Positions 2,552 to 64,000 of a stretch of 64,000 nt of DNA are shown piece after piece. Source of the DNA: a virus (lineage: Duplodnaviria; Caudoviricetes); the IMG/VR virus record IMGVR_UViG_3300020577_012633, positions 59,216 through 123,215 of that record; one strand, written 5' to 3'. The position numbers and the translations under genes are program-made. Under the pieces are notes generated by a model. The model did not search any database. It saw only the letters and a list, made by a program, of their open reading frames with translations, and was not told where the DNA came from. Every line of letters begins with the position of its first letter. Position 1 is the first letter of the stretch.

Positions 2552-3797
2552 GAGATACAGGTCCACCAGTTTTATCATCGAGATCAAAATTGGCGTCTAT
2601 GAAATTTATTACCTCTTGAGGATCAATGCCTTTGTTAAAGACAATATTTGGTCCATGATTGTCAAGATATACTGCATATAGATTGCCAAACTTAGCAAGC
2701 CCATTTGAAGTATTTTGACCGCACTGGTGAGAGCCACATTCGTATTCTCTTTGAGAAACAGTAGGAACAAGATCTCTTGGGTTTTGTTTCAACGGACAAT
2801 GAAAATGTACAATACAATCGCAATCTGGATGTTCTGCAAAAACAATACGTTGAGATTGTCCGCCTACGGAAGGTTTAGCGCCATAAGCAATAACTCTATC
2901 CGGCCCATCAGTCTCAATCTTTACAAGACCATTCTTTTCAATATCATTGAAGTTTGTTTTGCGAATAGAAGTCAAGAAAGTTGTTGGACCAATTTTTGCA
3001 GCAAAATGGCCGACAGTCGCCCCACTAGGACCAACCTTATATGCTCCATTTGCAACACAATAGTCTACAACCGTTCTAAGAACCTCAGGAACAAGATCTG
3101 ACTTCCAAGGAATAGGATCGCCAGCTATGACAGTAGAACGAGTAAAAGTAAGATGAGAACGAAGTTTAGTCATTTCAACAAGACCGCGAAGAGCTGCATC
3201 TCTGTCAAAGGTAACGTGATATCTTGCTTCTTCTGGCGTGATGACCATATTCAATCGCGTCTTTACGTCATTTGCAAGGACAAGGTTACAAGAAGCTTTC
3301 TTGCAAAGATCAAGACCTGCAATATATTGTTCATCTTCTGTTGCGTTACAGGTAGTCTTAAATCCAACAAGGAAAATATCCTTGCGACTATATTTTTCTG
3401 CGCGGAAAAATTTAATCACTTTCTTTTTCATGGATAGATCAATTTTATAACCATTCAAATTCCTTGAATTTAATCTGGTTTCATATTTACCAGGAGAATT
3501 TTCTCCAACCTTTCCTTCATAATCACACATAGCGCAAGAAAAGAAAACAATCTTGACGTTCAAATCAGAGACTATATCCTTTACCCATGCTTCAACATCT
3601 TCATTTGTTTCCATAGCAGAGCCAGGATCTGCCATTTTAGTTAGGCACATTGAGGTAGTCATGCTAGGAATCAATTCTTCGCAAAGAGATTGAAGCTTTC
3701 GTGCTGTTTTACCATAAGCAGGAGCGCACAAAGCTAAATGAGCAGTGACATGAGAAACAGTTCCGCCGCCAAAGATAGCGATTTTCTTGGGGTTCAT
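2529..3797 (-). CDS. CoaB/DFP-like domain fused to class II aldolase/adducin domain
   Basis: GGGT, AMCDY, LVGFKTT, LVLAND in N-half; CIVHFH and LDNHG in C-half. Confidence 0.65.
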   Translation of the reverse strand: MNPKKIAIFGGGTVSHVTAHLALCAPAYGKTARKLQSLCEELIPSMTTSMCLTKMADPGSAMETNEDVEAWVKDIVSDLNVKIVFFSCAMCDYEGKVGENSPGKYETRLNSRNLNGYKIDLSMKKKVIKFFRAEKYSRKDIFLVGFKTTCNATEDEQYIAGLDLCKKASCNLVLANDVKTRLNMVITPEEARYHVTFDRDAALRGLVEMTKLRSHLTFTRSTVIAGDPIPWKSDLVPEVLRTVVDYCVANGAYKVGPSGATVGHFAAKIGPTTFLTSIRKTNFNDIEKNGLVKIETDGPDRVIAYGAKPSVGGQSQRIVFAEHPDCDCIVHFHCPLKQNPRDLVPTVSQREYECGSHQCGQNTSNGLAKFGNLYAVYLDNHGPNIVFNKGIDPQEVINFIDANFDLDDKTGGPVSLSEHSHA

Positions 3798-15144: not shown

Positions 15145-15158
15145 TTTAACCTTTCAAA

Positions 15159-15233
15159 TGCCCTCGGCGGGACTCGAACCCACAACTCTCAGAATTTTAG
15201 AGATTCCGGTTCTGCCAATTGAACTACGAGAGC
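15159..15233 (-). tRNA. Amber suppressor tRNA (CTA)
   Basis: Full cloverleaf; anticodon arm GGAAT-CTCTAAA-ATTCT. Confidence 0.88.
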
Positions 15234-16617
15234 AATATCAGTCACCTTCAAACGAAAGAGAAAAAGGCTTTCTCCACATTCCGTAATTGTTCTTAATTTT
15301 CATACCATCAATAACTTCCTGGGGAGGAGAATTTGGAATGATAGTACACTGGTCTTCATGAACATTGAAGTCTCTATCTCCTTCGGCAGTTTTCGGGTCC
15401 ATGACCTTGTAAATAGCGCCAAACCAGGAGAAAGCAAACTTACCGTCATCACACTTCCACCAGCCAATATCTCCAATTGCATCACGATTCTTGCGAATCC
15501 TTCGCATAAGAGAAAGCGCCTCTTTAGAAACTTTAACCATTTCCTTAGAGTTTATAACAACGCATCCAAGGTTATCGTTCCCAGTAGGAAAGAAACCTTT
15601 GTTCTTCTTATGAGAAGAAGGACAAAAGACAATCTTGCCATCAATAGCAAAAATATTTACAGTAAATGGATTTGCCTTTTTTGTTGGTTTTTTGGTTTTT
15701 GTTTTACTGGTTAGAATTTTTGAACCAACATTTTTATTTTTTACTGTCATATTCTTATTTCCCGTACCAAGCCGCGATTGGTTTAATAATAGCAAAAGCT
15801 GACCAACAATGATAAACATAGCCAAAATCGTGACAATTCATTCTAAAACCTTTACCAATCGTCCCGTCAAAATCTTTAATTTCTTTTTCCCAATTATTAT
15901 CTAGATCAAAGTCATTCAAGTTTGCATTTTTCAACCATGCAATTACAAAATCTTTCCAGTCGATATCAAAAGTTTTTACTTCTATTTTTCTGGCTTCAGA
16001 ATTAATCGTAAAATATTGGTCTTTTGGGTCAGTCCAAAAAAGAACAAGACCTTTTCTTGGTACAATAGTATAATGAGAGGCTCCTTTAGGACAAAGAGCA
16101 GACAAATAATCAAGACACGCATTTAGTGTCTTATAATCGCCTCTAATATCGAATAATATGTTATTCATTTTATTCTGGATCTTTTTCAATAGCGACAGAA
16201 TGACCTGCTAATCCAAAGAAAACAACATCCGCAATTGAAAGCATGAACTCTCTATGTGGAGTCCTCTTAAACTCATGCAGGAATACTTCGCAATTTTCAG
16301 CCTGAACGGCAGCTTGTTCCAGCCTAGCTTTGATCTTTTCAATTTGACCGCTATTTATGGCGATAGAACGATCAGCAAGAAGCTGTGTCATCTTGCTTCT
16401 AAAATATTCTTCTTGCTCTTTGTAAAAGGAAACTTTTTTAGTAGCAGCCTCTATCAGCAAAGAACCTGGATATGTAAATTTCCATGTTTCCCGATTTCTG
16501 TCTTTGAATTCACTGTACATTTTAAATTCCTTTTTGAAGTTTTTCTTACTCTAAATTCGCCTTGAAAAGTCTAGGGCCAATTTTGTTGATGGAGGCAATC
16601 TCAATAACCAGTCTGTA

Positions 16618-38021: not shown

Positions 38022-38104
38022 AACTAGATTCCTCCTAGTTATGAATTACTGTATTATAATGGAGCAGTCCTCTAAAAAATGGAGGAAAGCTCATGTATTT
38101 TTAC

Positions 38105-38452
38105 TGGAGCCGAGGGGAATCGAACCCCTGTCTTTAGCGAATCTTTCAAGCGTTACTACAAGTTTGTTTGATGATTTATCTTATCTCAATGTCTATCATC
38201 AACGAACATACATTGAGAGCATTTTTCTCTTATCTCAAACTGACTTAATGAAAAAGGTTTGGGTCAGTTCCAGCAGATGTTTTTCGCTAAACTCATTATC
38301 TGCGTCAAAAATTTAGCGGGTAGCCTTAATTAGGCTGCCATTGCGAGAGTGCTGTTGCCAGCTAGTTTTTTGCATACTTTTTACGAGTCCAGCATGCTCC
38401 TCGACTTGCAACGTTCTTGTCTAATCCCTAAATCGAATACCAGTACGGCCCC
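38105..38452 (-). ncRNA. ssrA: tmRNA, predicted tag (A)GNSTLAMAA*
   Basis: GGGGCCG/CGGCTCCA acceptor with G3.U70, T arm, internal ORF GGC AAC AGC ACT CTC GCA ATG GCA GCC TAA. Confidence 0.92.
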
Positions 38453-40306: not shown

Positions 40307-40612
40307 GAACATTTCACGCTCTCATTTCATTTTTTCCAATTTCCTGCTTATTTTTTCTCCTCTTTTTTCCAGTTCAACAATACATTTATGATAAAATGAT
40401 TTTCTATTCTTGAAATTTTCTTTTTTATCCCAAGTTGCATCCAGGTATGCAATCATCATTTCTTGATTCATGTCTAAAATATTTGCACTTGAAAATATAG
40501 TGTCAATTAGGCTATATTGCTGAGCCTTACAAATATCTTCTGTAGCTAAATAAATATTATTGATATCGCCAAGCGAATTCGCCATTAATAGCTCCTTATT
40601 TTTATGGGAAAA

Positions 40613-40740
40613 TGGACGAGAAGGAATTGAACCTTCAATCTTTGATCGGCGGACCTGCAAAGGTTGTCTAGTTTTCACCAGACTGCGAAGTGAGAGCGGC
40701 AGGTTCCTAATTCAATGTTCTACCTTTGAACTAATCGTCC
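40613..40740 (-). ncRNA. tRNA-like RNA with the anticodon arm replaced by a large structured domain
   Basis: GGACGA/TCGTCC acceptor, D arm GTTC-AAAGGTA-GAAC, T arm GAAGG-TTCAATT-CCTTC. Confidence 0.7.
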
Positions 40741-41548
40741 TCGATATTATATGGTATAAATTCTTCAAAATCTTCAATACAAGCTTCATAAGGTTCAAAA
40801 TCTTCATATGCCAAAAATTCTGCATAAATATTTGTTGGAAAACTAGTTACAGAATATTCTGCTATACGCTTCTCTGTATCTGCTGTAAGTTTGTTTATAA
40901 AAGACGGGTCAATCATACAAGGACCAATTTCTTCTTTTATAATAAAATCAAGTTTTTCATGTTTATTATGTGAATTATTTTCCATGTTTTAAATATTTAG
41001 ACCTTAAAAAAGGTTCTGCGCAAGAATCATAAGGTTGCCAACGATCTTTATAAAATGCATCAAGATCATCAATCTTATCATCTATATCGCTATTTGATGC
41101 CCAACGATCAATGTCGTCCCATTCTCTTTTACATTTAGAGGCATCTTCAGTAAGATGATCACACTCTTTAATAATATTCAATATCTTTTTATTATGCTTC
41201 ATTATTTAAAACGAGTTGTTCTTCTTTAATAACATTTATATAAGCCTTAAATATACCAAAATATTTTCGCATTTCTATATCAATTTTGTTTAAGAAAGCT
41301 TCAGCTTTTTCTGGACTATTAAAGAAAACTCGTTCTCCCCATCTATTATTCGTTATACCCTCAGAATAACTCATGCCAATAACTTTACTAGAATCAGGGA
41401 ATTCACCATTTTTTTGCTTGCAAGCAACTAGCCAAACTTCATCTAATAAAACAGAATTTTTATTTTGTGACATATATTTTTTTCGACTAGAAAACTAGGA
41501 ATCAAAAACGTCTCACATCAATCATTCATAGAATCTATATAAAATTCC

Positions 41549-50410: not shown

Positions 50411-50502
50411 AACTTGGTCCTCCTTTCTTCTATGAAATCAACTATTTGAACTTTTGGTTTATCAAATATTCTAAGCAATCTTGTAATAACTCGCAAAAAA
50501 AG

Positions 50503-51071
50503 TCAAGGTGACAGGATTCGAACCTGCGGACTCGTGGACCCTACCATATAAAATCATTAGCCCATTTAATATTCTTTTTTTGCCCGTTTTTAGGCTTTTC
50601 AATTCTCACGCATAACATTCTTTTATTTTCAAATTGTTCTGGCCCAAAACACAGGATTTTATCTATTTTTGGAACATAAACAAGAACTAAATCAATATCT
50701 TTTGAAGAATAAGTATCATGTTTATATTTAGTAAGAGCTGTTTTTCTTGCCATTTCAATTCTAACAGAACCTTCACTATCTTTAGATACTTTCCCGTCTC
50801 CATATTTACATTGAATCTTTAGTATTTTGCCATTATTTTCAATAAGTAAATCGTACACTGATTCTGTTGTGGGTATTGATACTATGAAATCTTTTTCCAT
50901 AGCTCTTTGTTGTATCTTAAGCACTGCTAACTGACCTTTATTATTTGTATTCATTTAAATTCCTATATTAGTATTAGAACCTTGTGGTATAGTTACATAG
51001 GGTTATTGAATATCCTTCTTATACAAATAAAATTACTAACCACGCACTCTACCAAGCTGAGCTACACCCTG
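50503..51071 (-). tRNA. Split tRNA-Pro (reconstructed AGG); halves 51036-51071 and 50503-50543
   Basis: Halves join to CGTGG-TTAGGGT-CCACG; TAG duplicated at the junctions. Confidence 0.8.
50541..50954 (-). CDS. PD-(D/E)XK endonuclease (I-Ssp6803I-like family)
   Basis: KGQLA, VSIP...YDLLIE..KIQCKY, IDLVLVY. Confidence 0.8.
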   Translation of the reverse strand: MNTNNKGQLAVLKIQQRAMEKDFIVSIPTTESVYDLLIENNGKILKIQCKYGDGKVSKDSEGSVRIEMARKTALTKYKHDTYSSKDIDLVLVYVPKIDKILCFGPEQFENKRMLCVRIEKPKNGQKKNIKWANDFIW

Positions 51072-58730: not shown

Positions 58731-59740
58731 ATTCTCAAATGCTAAACTCATGCTTAGCATAAACCTTAATTTCTTCTTCGTATTTTATTCGACTAGAAAT
58801 GATATTCTTTATTTTTTCTCTATCTCTTTTTTGCGTCTTAAGATAATCTTCGTCTCCTCTTGATGAACAAGGATAATCGGTAACATCTCGTATTTTTGCT
58901 ATTCTAATAAACTCAGTAGGAGATAAAAGCCATTTTTCTTTTGTTACTGAAACATCATAAACATTATAAGTACAGGAAGCTCTAACCTTGTTCTTTGTTC
59001 TATAAACAAAATATTCAGAATATTTATCAGGGTATATTGCGCTAAAACAACATGAAATAGAGGGAGCAACGCAAATTCTCTTTATGTCTGGTTCTCTTTG
59101 ATCAGCATTAACAATGCTTCTAGGAACAAAAGTATAACTAGAACCAAGATTTTTAGGAGTAACATGATAATAATATCTTGAAATTTTGCTCTTTATTATT
59201 TTTCGCATAAAATAAAAATCGACAAAGAATATTCACAATATTATACTTTCACAGTATCAAAAAAATAGCTATTCCCCAAAATCATTCCATCTTATTAATG
59301 GATTCCAACTAATATTTAGTTCGTCAAAGAATTCTCTATTAAAACCATCATCTTCAATCTGATCAAACTTCCAATGTGTTTGATAGCCTATCTCTCTAAG
59401 AATATCTTTAATATTCTGCAAAGCCTTGCGATTTCTTTTATTATATTGACTTTCAAACTGACGAACACCAATCTGTACTGAACAAGAATCATGAAGATCA
59501 AGAATAGCACAAGATATAGAAGCTGAAACTTTTAAAAGCATTTCTTGGTAAGCTTTTTCATAGAGAAACTCTTCAGATTCTACTTTTTTTGTTTCTCTTT
59601 TATTTTCAGACTTAATTCTTTCTTCACGAGCTTTTTCTAATTTTTTGCGAGCAGTATCAGCAGTCATTAGTTCAATAGATATTTTATCCATAATCACAAA
59701 TCGACTTAAACTTAGCTTACTGATACAAATTCACCATAAG

Positions 59741-59883
59741 TGGAGACGGTAGGAGTCGAACCTACAATAGTCCTTATCGGACAACCCGGTGTACAGTCGG
59801 GCTTGCTCGCCTTTTCTTTAGCATAATACAACTGATTATTCTAAAGATTGGAACTCGCTTTAGCTTATCCTTGCCGCGTCCCC
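59741..59883 (-). tRNA. tRNA-Tyr(GTA) with large D-arm insert
   Basis: GGGGACG/CGTCTCC, loop CTGTACA, variable arm GTCC/GGAC, T arm. Confidence 0.7.
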
Positions 59884-60183
59884 GTCAATTCAATAGTCTT
59901 TCGAAAGACTACGATACCTCTCTGAACAACATTTCGGATCAACTGCATCTATCCCTGGAATCAAAAGCGTAAAATTATGACTCTTTGGGAAATACTTTAT
60001 CCCGAACCAACCAGTTAAAGGAAAAACAAACCACATCAAAAGCAATTGTCTTCTTACTGTAATATATCCATCCAAAGCAGGATCAACCTTTATCGCAAGC
60101 CTTACAAAAAACCATTGTAAGATAAAAAAGTTTACGAAACCCATAAGAAGCGGTGTTTTTTCATTATTTTGCATATATTCCCT

Positions 60184-60687
60184 TTATGATGGTAATTCTA
60201 AATGTAATTTATCTTGATCTAGGCCGTATTTGGTTGGAGGAGCATTCTTTTTAAGCTGAACCATAGCATTATCGTTTATCAGCTCGGCTTTCGTCGCAAA
60301 GCCTCTATAAGTAAACCTAGCCCCATCTTTCAAACTGCCAGTCATAAGAACATAGTAATCGTTTTCACCAGTGCAATGAGGAGCAGCTAAAAGCCTCCCA
60401 TTTGGATGCTTTGTCTGTTTGACATCGACCTTTTTTCCAGATGGAAGTAAAAGATCCACTCCGCCTTTTCTAGCTCCAATACTAAGATCAGGATACAAAT
60501 TCATTAACTTTGCAAAAGCAAGTTCTGCTGCAAAGCCATCAGTATCAGTTTCTTCATTAGATTGATCGCCAATCTTTTTGTTTTCAACACCAGACGCTCT
60601 TGCTGTCTGATACCTTGCACGGCCAAAAGATACACAAAGCTTTTGTTCATACTCTTCAAGAATTATTTCTATTGGAGCTTTTCTCAT
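60184..60687 (-). CDS. PD-(D/E)XK-like nuclease fold protein
   Basis: AELAFAK, GVDL, VDVKQT. Confidence 0.55.
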   Translation of the reverse strand: MRKAPIEIILEEYEQKLCVSFGRARYQTARASGVENKKIGDQSNEETDTDGFAAELAFAKLMNLYPDLSIGARKGGVDLLLPSGKKVDVKQTKHPNGRLLAAPHCTGENDYYVLMTGSLKDGARFTYRGFATKAELINDNAMVQLKKNAPPTKYGLDQDKLHLELPS

Positions 60688-60770
60688 ATTCTTTTATCGC
60701 CAAAAAAAGAATATTACTCTGCAATCCACAAGCTTCCTCCCGGAATCGAACCGAGTTATCTGAGATACGA

Positions 60771-61433
60771 TTACTCAGACCATCTAGGACAATGAAATTT
60801 ACCGTATTCCTGTATCGCTCCAAACACCATTTGAACTATTTCGGTGCTATGAACGGAAATTATACAAATACCATATGGAAGTTTGGTTTTATTTTGTTTT
60901 TTAGGATAATATTCGCTTTTTATTGTTACTTTTCTTTTGTTTTGAGAAAGAAGATTAAGTGACTTTTTCCAATATTCTTCTACTTCTTCAATAGAAAAAC
61001 CACAATCGAGCCTGCAATTAACTTTCCATATAACCTCTTTACTGGATATATTGAAATGTTTTTGCAAAAAATCTAAAAACACTTTTAACAAGTTGCAATC
61101 AGAATTACAAATTTGTAAACTATTGCGACCTTTTGATCCTTCACCCCAGTAAAGCATGCAACCTGCTATAAAACTTGGATCAAGTTTACGAGCAATGGAT
61201 GCCCCCATTTTTTGCCACTCAAGTCGCTTTGCTAAAGCATCAGAAGATCTTTTTACAGAAGCCATAGTTGAACTTCTTTTTAGTAAAAAAATTTTCTGTT
61301 CCTCAGAAATTAGAATTTCTCTAACCCATAAAGAAACACTAGACTTAGAAACATTAAGAATAGAAGCAATTTGAGTTATTGAAATACCAGATTTCCTGAG
61401 TTCTATTGCTTTATTTTTTAACTTCTTTTTCAT
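60771..61433 (-). CDS. HTH + LAGLIDADG-like endonuclease
   Basis: N-terminal HTH (IASILNVSKSSVSLWV), AGCMLYWGEG, NSD..L. Confidence 0.65.
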   Translation of the reverse strand: MKKKLKNKAIELRKSGISITQIASILNVSKSSVSLWVREILISEEQKIFLLKRSSTMASVKRSSDALAKRLEWQKMGASIARKLDPSFIAGCMLYWGEGSKGRNSLQICNSDCNLLKVFLDFLQKHFNISSKEVIWKVNCRLDCGFSIEEVEEYWKKSLNLLSQNKRKVTIKSEYYPKKQNKTKLPYGICIISVHSTEIVQMVFGAIQEYGKFHCPRWSE

Positions 61434-61499
61434 TTGATACTCTCTTTTTAGAACCTTGTGCTATAGTTATATACTAGGAGTATCATATGAATCCTTCAA

Positions 61500-61574
61500 A
61501 GTTCTTGGCAGGACTTGAACCCGCAACCTCCTTATTACGAGTAAGGCACTCTACCAAAATTGAGCTACAAGAAC
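61500..61574 (-). tRNA. tRNA-Thr(CGT), carried inside the insertion
   Basis: CCTTA-CTCGTAA-TAAGG, complete cloverleaf. Confidence 0.92.
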
Positions 61575-61835
61575 ATATACGAACTCAGCGCATCGCCAGC
61601 AATGCTTAGGAAGCATTTCTTATGAGCTTCATCATCATTTTGTAACACATAGGTATTGAATTCTTATAAGAAAAAGAAAAAGCATGTTTTAGATTTTCTA
61701 TTTTGCGAAAACCATACTCTTTACCTGTCAAGGAAAGTATAGCATAATAAAACAAAATTAGAAATCGCACTGTTCTCATGACAATGTATACAATTACTTA
61801 AAATGTTTTCCTATATGTAAAATAAATTTACATAA

Positions 61836-61908
61836 TAGCGATACCAGGACTCGAACCTGATACTCAGTCTTATGAGGACTGCGCGTTTGCCCGTTACGCC
61901 ATATCGCC
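61836..61908 (-). tRNA. tRNA-Met/Ile2(CAT)
   Basis: CAGTC-CTCATAA-GACTG. Confidence 0.9.
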
Positions 61909-62343
61909 GTCAAATCTTCTTATGTTTTTCTCTATATCTGTCTAAATGTAATATTTCTTTCTTTCTTTTCTCTACAGCAGCTTGAGCATTTTCAAGTGAA
62001 GAAAAACAAGAAAAACTAGCAGTCAAAATTCCATCATGAGAAAGGTTAAATATTTTATTAGGATCTCTATCTTCTGGATACTTCCAAAGACTTAAACTTC
62101 CGCCTTTCAAAATAAACCTAACCATACCAGTTATAATCTTCAAATCCTTACTGTATGGATGAAAATGCCATACCTGCATACCAAGCTTTACATCAACACT
62201 ATCAGCCAACTTATATGGTTTTTTGCGAATGCAAGGTAAATATTTTTTACCATCACGAATCATCTTGTGATATTCTTTTGCATAGCCACATCGCTGACAA
62301 GTCTTGTCATCGTCAAATCTCATTGGCTCGTCAATGTTTGGCA

Positions 62344-63240
62344 TTATAGTATTTTTTCTAAATATTCTTCAATCAATTCTTTACCAGATAAGCCATTAAT
62401 AAATCTTTCTGGAATTGATCTGTATCCGTAAAAAGCACCAGCAAATTGTCCTGCTATTGCTCCAGTTGTATCGGCATCATTACCTAGATTTACAGCTTTG
62501 AGAACAATATCTTCAAAAGAATCGCCAGTAGCAAAAGCCCATAGAGAAGAATGCAAACTACTTACAACATTGAAATCGCCATGAGCTTCTTCTGTGAGAA
62601 AATTTCCATTTGCTATAGCCCTAATCTCTTCATGAAGATCAAGATTTCTAGTCTTTTCCCAATCTTTGTCCAAAACAATCTCTTTGGCTAGACCGTTCAA
62701 CAAACCTGCAAGCACAACTGCCATGTATTCGCAAGCTGATTTGCATACAGGACTATTATGGGTTGTAGAACTTGATTCATTTGCGAAATTTACAATATTT
62801 TCATCATCGAAATACTTTATGCAAACTGGAGCAAGTCTCATGATAGAACCGTTACCTCTAGTATCAACCAGGCTTGATTCCAATTGACCTGTTTGAATAT
62901 AATCTTTAATAGCTTGTCTAGTAGTGCCGCCTATTCCAAAACACTTACCAACAGTCGTATATTTGCCATTATTATACCAATCAACATACTTATCAAGTTG
63001 ATCTTTTCTGGAATGACCATTGGAAAGAGAATCAGCAAGAGCTAAAGCCATGCTAGTATCATCAGTCCATTCACCAGCTTTTGAACCAGGTTGTCCCCAA
63101 TTTCTTGGTTTTCCATTTCTATAACCTGTTACTATGGGAAACGTGCCTGCTTTTTTCTTTTCTATAGGAGTTCCAAGGGCATCTCCAATAGCAAGGCCAT
63201 AAAAACAGCCTTTTTTACGATCACGAATATCTGTTGTCAT
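62344..63240 (-). CDS. ADP-ribosylglycohydrolase (DraG/ARH family)
   Basis: GDALG, WTDDT, GNGSIMR, DADTTGAIAG. Confidence 0.93.
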   Translation of the reverse strand: MTTDIRDRKKGCFYGLAIGDALGTPIEKKKAGTFPIVTGYRNGKPRNWGQPGSKAGEWTDDTSMALALADSLSNGHSRKDQLDKYVDWYNNGKYTTVGKCFGIGGTTRQAIKDYIQTGQLESSLVDTRGNGSIMRLAPVCIKYFDDENIVNFANESSSTTHNSPVCKSACEYMAVVLAGLLNGLAKEIVLDKDWEKTRNLDLHEEIRAIANGNFLTEEAHGDFNVVSSLHSSLWAFATGDSFEDIVLKAVNLGNDADTTGAIAGQFAGAFYGYRSIPERFINGLSGKELIEEYLEKIL

Positions 63241-63274
63241 GTTCAAAGTATAGACAAAAAGAATGCACAAGTAA

Positions 63275-63347
63275 AGCCTTCTGTGGGATTCGAACCCACT
63301 ACCCCTTCCTTACCAAGGAAGTATTCAACCATATGAAATTAGAAGGC
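63275..63347 (-). tRNA. tRNA-Thr(GGT)
   Basis: CTTCC-TTGGTAA-GGAAG. Confidence 0.88.
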
Positions 63348-63368
63348 GTTTAATACAGAACTTATCAA

Positions 63369-63440
63369 AGGCTCCTGAGGGAGTTGAACCCTCGACAAGT
63401 TGCTTAACAGGCAACCACTCTACCGCTGAGTTAAAGAGCC
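63369..63440 (-). tRNA. tRNA-Asn(GTT)
   Basis: GTTGC-CTGTTAA-GCAAC. Confidence 0.9.
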
Positions 63441-63451
63441 ATTAGTTTCAA

Positions 63452-63524
63452 CGGTATGGGACGGTTTTGACCCGCCATCCTTCCACTATTCAAGTGGTCG
63501 CTCTACATTTGGAGCTACCATACC
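63452..63524 (-). tRNA. tRNA-Phe(GAA), atypical D and T loops
   Basis: CCAC-TTGAATA-GTGG; T loop GTCAAAA. Confidence 0.65.
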
Positions 63525-63528
63525 ATAA

Positions 63529-63600
63529 AGTTCTCTCAGAGACTCGAACTCTGCTAACTGGGATACAAATCCAGCCCCTCGCCATCTAGGGTTAGAGAAC
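63529..63600 (-). tRNA. tRNA-Thr(TGT)
   Basis: Loop TTTGTAT, cloverleaf. Confidence 0.85.
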
Positions 63601-63747
63601 GTAACTTGTAGGCTCCTCATGGTTTGGAGTTATTCCTACAAAGCGGTAAATCTTACGAATTACACTCTTGGAGCATCGTTTTATAATGGTGATTCCCATG
63701 CCGACATCACCTGCTAGTATTTTTTCCATCGGTCTAGCTACGATAAG

Positions 63748-63821
63748 CTCCAGGAGCAGGCCTCGAACCTGCACTCACCAAGTTAACAGCTTGGCTGCTT
63801 ACCTACTTTGCATACCCTGGA
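63748..63821 (-). tRNA. tRNA-Asn(GTT)
   Basis: CCAAG-CTGTTAA-CTTGG. Confidence 0.88.
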
Positions 63822-63904
63822 ATGACGCCCTTTTCAATTCTATGATATTAACCCGTTGCCCCGGTACTTCATAGTTTTTATACGAAAAGGATTTGATGCA
63901 AAAG

Positions 63905-63946
63905 CTCCCTGAGTAGGACTCGAACCTACGACATGCGAGTTATTAA
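63905..63946 (-). tRNA. 3' half of a tRNA (Ile-like); 5' half not adjacent
   Basis: ATAA-CTCGC-ATGTC-GTAGG-TTCGAGT-CCTAC-TCAGGGA-G preceded by AT-rich non-tRNA sequence. Confidence 0.7.
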
Positions 63947-63961
63947 TTTTTAAAATAAAGA

Positions 63962-64000
63962 TTAATTTAGTCGAAGTAATTCTTCGTGAACCTCTGCATG
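63962..64000 (-). CDS. Probable C-terminus of an HNH endonuclease (truncated by window)
   Basis: HAEVHEELLRLN* resembles the CxxCHxxxH tail. Confidence 0.5.
   Translation of the reverse strand, partial: HAEVHEELLRLN

Follow-up and report, generated by a model that had tools for sequence, protein, structure and literature searches.

Homing endonucleases are thought to persist in essential genes through self-splicing introns or inteins, or to reside between genes. I-Ssp6803I, a PD-(D/E)XK enzyme, is encoded in a self-splicing group I intron of the cyanobacterial tRNA-fMet gene, and integrative elements inserting into tRNA genes bring along a duplicate of the 3' segment, by which the gene is restored. 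In collaborative (trans) homing, alleles lacking the intron are cut, at the site where it inserts, by a free-standing endonuclease. Such an endonuclease, F-CphI, lies beside a group I intron devoid of an open reading frame (ORF) in the cyanophage psbA system (PMC3984707). SegB of T4/T6 is a free-standing GIY-YIG homing endonuclease encoded in a phage tRNA cluster, which recognises the T-psi-C motif of tRNA genes and, without any intron, spreads together with neighbouring tRNA genes in co-infection (PMC2330249). SegB homologues are statistically tied to tRNA genes across phages (PMC13096335), and an HNH gene was described beside long tRNA arrays (PMC8421152). The present analysis concerns a window of 64,000 nt, the final 64 kb of a 123-kb huge-phage record from IMG/VR (IMGVR_UViG_3300020577_012633, positions 59,216 to 123,215; estimated to be 24% complete), in which the anticodon loop of a tRNA-Thr(CGT) gene, termed A, is interrupted by a cassette made up of a second, intact tRNA-Thr(CGT) gene, called B, and a gene encoding a 220-aa protein. 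The cassette is read here, with moderate confidence, as an intron-less homing endonuclease travelling with a spare tRNA, which settled in the phage's own tRNA-Thr(CGT). Full-text literature searches revealed no description of such a design, T4 SegB being the closest published case.

Insertion into a resident tRNA gene

The minus strand of the window carries a long tRNA array. With introns allowed, ARAGORN reported a tRNA-Thr(CGT) at c[60731,61614] with an 812-nt insert and an intact tRNA-Thr(CGT) at 61574-61500 nested within it. Gene A is interrupted on the minus strand, in its anticodon loop, by 812 bp (61576-60765), which comprise a cassette of 806 bp and a second copy of the hexanucleotide TCGTAT. 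The original prediction, a note made by a model from the letters of the window, had given the same layout of an 812-bp anticodon-loop insert with a TCGTAT duplication, and all its coordinates were confirmed. The features of the region are listed below.

61577-61614, minus strand: 5' half of A, tRNA positions 1-38, ending in the first TCGTAT (61582-61577); found by ARAGORN and orthologous to the 5' part of the intact tRNA in the related contigs L183 and L185
61575-61576, minus strand: 2-nt filler AT between the 5' half of A and B, left edge of the cassette; from the comparison with the empty site
61500-61574, minus strand: cargo tRNA-Thr(CGT) B, intact, CCA not encoded; found by ARAGORN, Rfam tRNA 62.6 bits
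61434-61499, minus strand: 66-nt spacer, 5' leader of the putative nuclease gene, holding a 26-nt motif (61473-61448); from the motif copy count in the record
60771-61433, minus strand: gene of the 220-aa protein with a helix-turn-helix (HTH) domain (residues 1-44) and a divergent single-motif LAGLIDADG-like domain (residues ~80-214); from Pfam, the AlphaFold (AF2) model and structure matches
60758-60780, minus strand: hairpin between the end of the ORF (last codons, GTCTGAG) and the 3' anticodon strand, its loop containing the stop codon; RNAfold -8.3 kcal/mol
60731-60770, minus strand: 3' half of A, the second TCGTAT (60770-60765) followed by tRNA positions 39-73; found by ARAGORN, 90% identity to L183 5526-5566

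The cassette consists of the AT filler, B, the 66-nt leader and the ORF, and of nothing else. The ORF ends exactly at the cassette edge, its stop codon TAA abutting the 3' half of A. The 5' half of A contains the acceptor strand, the D arm, the 5' anticodon strand CTGAG and the loop TTCGTAT, and the 3' half contains TCGTAT, CTCAG, a 4-nt variable loop, the T arm and the acceptor strand. When rejoined, the two halves gave a 72-nt tRNA folding into a perfect cloverleaf.

A search for relatives of the phage with a 21-mer of D-arm sequence, taken from the 5' half of A, yielded six IMG/VR contigs. Among these, L183 (9.7 kb) and L185 (333 kb) have the gene order of the window, Ser(GGA)-Ser(GCT)-Thr(CGT)-Met-Thr(GGT)-Asn, with an unbroken 72-nt tRNA-Thr(CGT), 88% and 86% identical to the rejoined A, respectively, in which TCGTAT is present in a single copy. 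A blastn comparison aligned window 60730-60770 to L183 5526-5566 and window 61577-61644 to L183 5561-5634, and the two alignments overlapped on L183 by 6 nt, i.e., by exactly the TCGTAT duplicated in the window. The flanks beyond the tRNA-Thr(CGT) gene also aligned on both sides with the relatives. The presence of an intact, syntenic tRNA-Thr(CGT) with a single TCGTAT makes L183 and L185 true empty sites, so the insertion is not due to chance. Empty-site alleles in related phages had been named in advance as a check of the prediction, and these two contigs provide them: the cassette has indeed been inserted into a tRNA gene that was resident in the phage. The gene for the 220-aa protein was absent from five related phage records, one of which is 98% complete. 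A blastn search of phage GenBank with the region gave no match, a 20-mer across the rejoined anticodon arm gave a single chance match in IMG/VR, in a coding region of L100, and single-protein searches with two flanking genes gave no relatives.

Neither half of A carries a disabling change, and all stems are intact. Among the differences between A and its orthologues are three compensated base pairs. With the paralogous Thr(TGT) taken as outgroup, the L183/L185 line gained two of these pairs and the line of A gained one (29G-41C). Both the undamaged halves and this pattern of compensated pairs fit a fairly recent insertion, which they do not prove. An ORF of 57 aa (61606-61779, minus strand) ends within the first bases of the 5' half of A; it is kept in L185 (7586-7768, 60 aa), and the corresponding stretch aligns in L183.

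The inner tRNA was found to be, as predicted, very different in sequence from A in spite of the identical anticodon. B shares only 40% identity with A and 43% with the L183/L185 orthologues, and no close copy of it was present in the five related phage records; on these grounds B, and the cassette with it, are shown by sequence comparison to be foreign to the phage. A 20-mer of B gave no match in IMG/VR, and neither a second copy nor a close relative of the cassette was found there. The G+C content of the cassette (31%) is near that of the phage (35%). Sigma-70-like promoters and terminators were no commoner around the cassette than in shuffled sequences.

The last codons of the ORF had been predicted to recreate the 5' anticodon strand of A. 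The pairing is indeed present, GTCTGAG at the ORF end matching CTCAGAT of the 3' half of A over 7 bp (-8.3 kcal/mol), but it is not conserved in the parallel case L094 described below, and the match of the ORF end to the anticodon stem is probably incidental or a trace of microhomology.

Search for intron, integrase and transposon features

An Rfam cmscan search detected no group I core at E<=1 over 59000-64000 and none at gathering scores across the whole window; the Rfam group I model was positive beside homologues of the protein in loci L003, L009, L016 and L023. At group I junctions, U precedes the 5' splice site and G is the last base of the intron. This rule fails here, as each placement of the split within TCGTAT gives identical letters at both bases, and with the split placed before TCGTAT the intron would end in A, not G. 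A group I or group II intron was rejected, there being no ribozyme core and the junction failing the U/G rule. A bulge-helix-bulge intron was rejected as well, since the cofolded junction regions form no such motif.

No terminal inverted repeats were found at the cassette ends, and the cassette has no room for an integrase or a transposase. An integrase island was rejected because the sole ORF codes for the 220-aa HTH-LAGLIDADG-like protein and the 6-bp repeat does not rebuild the tRNA. An insertion sequence (IS) element was rejected because the ends are not inverted repeats and the likeness to transposases exists at the level of the HTH only. The Rfam scans and the cassette content bear out the earlier statement that intron core, integrase and transposase are all missing.

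The protein encoded by the cassette

Searches of Pfam with the 220-aa protein (E<=1) gave matches to the N-terminal HTH_7 and HTH_23 only, and PHROGs and NCBIfam added nothing specific. When 22 diverse members of the family were searched at E<=5, Pfam LAGLIDADG was absent from the 25 families matched by most of them. A profile match to I-DmoI in the PDB was borderline (E about 0.8). The AF2 model had a predicted local distance difference test (pLDDT) value of 90. Foldseek returned nothing at E<=0.001; an exhaustive structural aligner run with residues ~80-214 placed about twelve LAGLIDADG entries among the top rows, with Z values of 4.4-7.5. These comprised 7qsu (Z 7.5), I-DmoI (6.5, root-mean-square deviation 2.3 with 78 aligned residues), WhiA (5.9), E-DreI (5.2), I-Tsp061I (5.1), I-Vdi141I (4.9), I-MsoI (4.4) and I-CreI (4.4), and intein endonucleases were also among the matches. 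Residues 1-44 matched resolvase/transposase-type HTHs structurally.

In the AF2 model, the C-terminal domain has the alpha-beta-beta-alpha-beta-beta-alpha core fold. Its motif, AGCMLYWGEGSK, contains the invariant E98, and the motif helix ends in this conserved acidic residue followed by G, as in LAGLIDADG enzymes. Among the 22 diverse members, the block GCML.W.EG.K (G91, C92, M93, L94, W96, E98, G99 and K101) was invariant, as were N110, D112, Q201 and E209. A two-copy model of residues 78-220 scored 0.68 versus 0.33 for the best control; the mark used for dimer scores was reached by 20 of 30 solved homodimers and by 1 of 23 single chains. Agreement between runs in the contacts was 100%, the pLDDT of the partner was at least 82, and the predicted interface was symmetric, formed by residues 86-98 with E98 touching E98, in a geometry of the I-CreI type. 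The pass of the dimer model may reflect its likeness to solved LAGLIDADG dimers. Because of the structural matches and the dimer geometry, the protein is read as a predicted divergent single-motif LAGLIDADG-type enzyme with an added HTH, and the description of the ORF as HTH-LAGLIDADG-like held for both parts, through the Pfam HTH matches and through the structural matches of the C-terminal domain.

Linkage of the family to tRNA genes

The family is unannotated and comprises at least 704 clusters among the candidates scored (E<=0.001), with proteins mostly of 220-230 aa; the two closest homologues of the window protein, P0002 and P0003, show 57% and 55% identity, respectively. Its members occur in huge phages and in several bacterial phyla, among them Chloroflexota, Actinomycetota and Armatimonadota. 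A total of 178 loci, 80 from GTDB genomes, 18 from IMG/VR and 80 from metagenomes, were examined. A tRNA gene lay within roughly 10-200 nt of the ORF in about nine tenths of them, and in nearly all of those without a contig-end cut. The following tRNA types and positions were recorded.

Gly(TCC), about 35 nt upstream of the ORF on the same strand: 61 loci
Glu(TTC), divergent from the ORF: 28 loci
Val(TAC), about 13 nt downstream of the ORF: 24 loci
Met(CAT), about 90 nt upstream of the ORF: 19 loci

Family members in phage arrays adjoin many other tRNA types. On a FastTree tree of 172 proteins the tRNA label changed 35 times, versus about 94 times when labels were shuffled.

Three contexts were distinguished, as members of the family were located beside plain tRNA genes, beside ORF-less group I introns in anticodon loops, or nested with a spare tRNA. 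The second context was represented by Anaerolineae (L003, L009, L016 and L023, about 1940-2360), in which an intron-bearing initiator-type tRNA-Met lies directly upstream of a tRNA-Met and the ORF. The initiator type was recognised by C1 opposite A72 and three G-C pairs at the foot of the anticodon stem, and this tRNA-fMet is interrupted in its anticodon loop by a group I intron of 262-291 nt without an ORF (Rfam 58-63 bits). In L025 (Thermoleophilaceae), a tRNA-Asn(GTT) with a 246-nt anticodon-loop insert (3218-3537) was found 30 nt after the putative nuclease ORF, the insert giving a sub-threshold group I match (31 bits, E 3e-6 when searched alone). A scan of 11 loci with the divergent tRNA-Glu revealed no group I intron at the Rfam gathering score. 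The Anaerolineae and L025 contexts point to the anticodon loop as the likely site of action of the family, and by analogy the two arrangements look like collaborative homing in bacterial tRNA genes.

Recurrence of the nested layout

The layout of a half tRNA, a whole tRNA, a nuclease-like gene and the other half, which had been proposed as something to search for in other genomes, was present in three other huge phages on separate branches of the tree. In L094, a 253-kb phage contig, tRNA-Gly(TCC) is split in the anticodon loop by 838 nt. Within these lie another tRNA-Gly(TCC), different from the split one, and a family member with its stop codon at a distance of 1 nt from the 3' half. A search for the L094 empty-site pattern gave no match.

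The other two cases are decayed. In L087, a tRNA 5' part comprising positions 1-33, its D arm being Gly-like, runs without a gap into a cargo tRNA-Gly(GCC). Next come the ORF, another small ORF and, after these, an orphan T arm with an acceptor strand. This acceptor strand pairs 7/7 with the 5' part and has U73, and the 3' strand of the anticodon stem is gone. In L081, a class-II-like 5' part is followed by a leader, the ORF and a class-II tRNA-Cys(GCA), with an orphan T arm and an acceptor strand at the downstream end, complementary to the 5' part and again with U73. Judging from the decayed remnants of L087 and L081, the halves are more likely to be relics than exons. The four proteins of the nested loci, including that of the window, are not neighbours on the tree. 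Orphan T arms were about three times commoner within 450 nt downstream of the ORFs than elsewhere in the loci. The class-II tRNA of L081 (3171-3255) is an 85-nt GCA (Cys) tRNA with a long variable arm, which begins 1 nt after the ORF stop codon; a normal 74-nt tRNA-Cys comes next after it.

A second split tRNA gene in the window

At 50502-51071 (minus strand), a tRNA-Pro(AGG) is split in the anticodon loop by 495 bp, consisting of an 80-nt leader and an ORF of 137 aa coding for a putative PD-(D/E)XK protein. TAG is repeated at both junctions, the ORF stop codon is located at the junction and no spare tRNA is present. With the split placed before TAG, the junction fits the U/G rule of group I introns, and the insert has no room for a ribozyme core. 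No intact counterpart or empty site of the split tRNA-Pro was found in four related phage records.

The 26-nt motif in the leader of the cassette has only two copies in the 123-kb record, at 61473-61448 and 50999-50974 (minus strand), which are identical at 24 of 26 positions. The second copy precedes the gene splitting tRNA-Pro, and about 50 nt of its leader are similar to that of the cassette. The enzymes encoded behind the two copies differ in fold. The shared motif may be a common promoter or leader, or may reflect an exchange of modules between the cassettes.

Proposed mechanism and alternative explanations

According to the reading of the cassette as a homing endonuclease with a spare tRNA, a homodimer of the enzyme would act on the near-palindromic DNA of the anticodon arm, which in A is CTGAG-TTCGTAT-CTCAG, and would cut in the loop of sensitive tRNA-Thr(CGT) genes. 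LAGLIDADG homing endonucleases perform site-specific double-strand cleavage that leaves 4-nt 3' overhangs. Repair would proceed by copying the cassette from an invaded allele, with homing via the conserved tRNA halves and flanks, and first entry would have taken place by end-joining capture at a break. The TCGTAT duplication could stem from this first capture, if a cut staggered by 4 nt was extended by 2 nt that happened to match. The resident A would be left as two dead halves and B would keep the decoding of ACG codons; the anticodon arm of B, CCTTA-CTCGTAA-TAAGG, differs from that of A and presumably stays uncut. The nuclease gene would probably be transcribed as part of the tRNA array, and tRNA processing would set it free from the transcript. 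We infer, then, that the protein cleaves DNA, that the cut lies in the loop, that B is resistant and that the halves of A are not rejoined. In the original prediction this had been framed as destroy-and-replace homing. The prediction held in part: the insertion, the foreign B, the lack of a splicing core and the recurrence of the layout all stood, and the design turned out less exotic than it had been framed. The analysis also established the fold class of the protein and the family-wide linkage to tRNA genes.

Several observations weigh against the homing reading. The weakest fit is the 6-bp repeat, as a duplication of this size looks transposon-like and is unlike classical homing or a 4-nt stagger. 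No Pfam LAGLIDADG model matched the window protein at E<=1, the structural Z values were moderate, and proteins combining LAGLIDADG and HTH domains can be regulators, e.g., WhiA. The undamaged halves and the derived compensated pair 29G-41C, which spans the insert, also fit continued selection on A. In bacteria, vertical inheritance may account for much of the linkage to tRNA genes. Nor is a spare tRNA obligatory, given that the putative PD-(D/E)XK gene splits tRNA-Pro without one. Finally, the phage record encodes a full-length RtcB (G000:C1:1932-3062; PF01139, E 2e-107), the sole hint of a rejoining of tRNA halves at the RNA level. A search for the T4 Rnl1 family gave no match, and the control genomes gave none either.

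The best surviving alternative, which we hold to be unlikely, assumes that the cassette is mobile and that the protein is not its mover. The protein would be a regulator- or maturase-like relic, as WhiA, or transposase-like, tRNA genes would serve as safe, highly transcribed sites, and the insertion would have occurred via transposition or illegitimate recombination. The direct repeat of 6 bp around the insert and profile matches limited to transposase-/resolvase-type HTH domains speak for this reading, as do the missing Pfam LAGLIDADG match, structural Z values not exceeding 7.5 and the WhiA LAGLIDADG domain among the structural matches. It is, however, at odds with the lack of terminal inverted repeats and of a DDE or recombinase domain, and with the invariance of E98 in the family and its place at the axis of the dimer model, as in active enzymes. 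Also against it are the matching of split and cargo tRNAs, which have the same anticodon in L094 and are apparently of the same amino-acid type in L087 and L081, and the position of the gene beside ORF-less anticodon-loop introns, a classic context of site-specific cutters.

A one-off neutral rearrangement, in which a tRNA and its neighbour gene were captured at a random break with no targeting and no ongoing mobility, is very unlikely. Phage tRNA arrays are plastic and their individual tRNAs dispensable, and the failure to find another copy or a close relative of the cassette in IMG/VR would be expected of a single event. A random break would, however, have had to fall in the anticodon loop of a tRNA sharing the anticodon of the cargo, with cassette edges within 2 nt of the tRNA start and exactly at the ORF stop codon, and the nested design recurs with different family members and different tRNA types.

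It is highly improbable that the insert is a ribozyme-free intron, A being functional and B an extra copy, with the halves of A either cut out by a protein endonuclease and rejoined, e.g., by RtcB, or assembled in trans. The RtcB gene, the two undamaged halves with intact stems and the second tRNA of the window that is split by a nuclease gene without a spare copy are all consistent with such rejoining. Set against them is the absence of a bulge-helix-bulge motif, the 3' anticodon strand pairing with the ORF end instead. No tRNA_int_endo splicing endonuclease was found in the 123 kb of a record that is 24% complete. Moreover, the transcript would be severed when B is processed by RNase P and at its 3' end, and the resulting 5'-phosphate and 3'-OH ends are not joined by RtcB. 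The halves in L087 and L081 could not be rejoined into a tRNA because their 3' remnants lack a matching anticodon strand. The particular version in which the halves of A, like those of the other split tRNA(s) of the phage, are alive, being held together through the acceptor and anticodon stems after excision and sealed by RtcB, is likewise highly improbable, and if true it would represent ribozyme-free, protein-dependent tRNA splicing in a bacterial virus.

Other RNA genes of the phage and its relatives

The window contains a full tmRNA gene at 38102-38452 (minus strand; Rfam 125.8 bits). A second stretch, at 59738-59883 (minus strand), gave a weak tmRNA-like match (19 bits); L183 and L185 share it at ~72% identity, and a small RNA gene may lie there. 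At 40611-40742 (minus strand), a tRNA-like gene (Rfam tRNA 43 bits) carries a 57-nt insert after an AGG anticodon. In the contigs L182 (2323-2404), L184 (9921-10002) and L187 (1162-1243), a tRNA-like gene to which ARAGORN assigned a four-base anticodon (AGGT) follows directly after tRNA-Thr(TGT). L183 and L185 have a tRNA with a CTA anticodon ("Pyl"/suppressor) at that position, and such a tRNA is present in the window at 15158-15234.

Comparison with known systems

The clean empty site together with several independent parallels suggests a third solution to the problem of persistence for RNA genes, in addition to self-splicing elements and locations between genes: the gene is broken and a working copy is brought along. 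The locus also exposes a large unannotated family of HTH-LAGLIDADG-like proteins tied to tRNA genes. If these enzymes cut the DNA of anticodon loops, they would drive horizontal replacement of tRNA genes, would help to explain the mosaic tRNA arrays of phages and would constitute compact nucleases with pseudo-palindromic targets.

Regarding enzymes, the window protein resembles I-CreI and I-MsoI in its predicted features, i.e., one motif helix with an invariant acidic residue, a symmetric dimer and a pseudo-palindromic candidate target. It differs from them in lacking membership of the profile, in its predicted N-terminal HTH and in being encoded in neither an intron nor an intein. With I-Ssp6803I it shares the location of a homing endonuclease gene in the anticodon loop of a tRNA gene, whereas the cassette has no ribozyme and its enzyme is LAGLIDADG-like. 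As in tRNA-targeting integrative elements, the insertion is accompanied by a short direct repeat and function would be kept by DNA that the element carries; unlike them, the cassette has no integrase, its 6-bp repeat rebuilds nothing and a whole unrelated tRNA is supplied.

Collaborative homing is approached in two respects, since family members lie beside ORF-less group I introns in tRNA-fMet of Anaerolineae and in tRNA-Asn of L025, and since the element protects or repairs its target gene. In the window, however, there is no intron, and the damage would be offset by a second gene at the DNA level, not at the RNA level by splicing. The closest relation is to SegB, with which the cassette has in common a nuclease gene among phage tRNA genes, a presence/absence polymorphism with conserved flanks and a location outside any intron or intein. 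SegB is a GIY-YIG enzyme that targets the T-psi-C arm and sits between genes, whereas the protein of the window combines an HTH with a LAGLIDADG-like domain, and the cassette lies inside the anticodon loop, leaves both halves of the gene and carries a replacement with the same anticodon. By analogy, the design may be viewed as intron-less homing with co-conversion of a neighbour gene, as in SegB, taken one step further.

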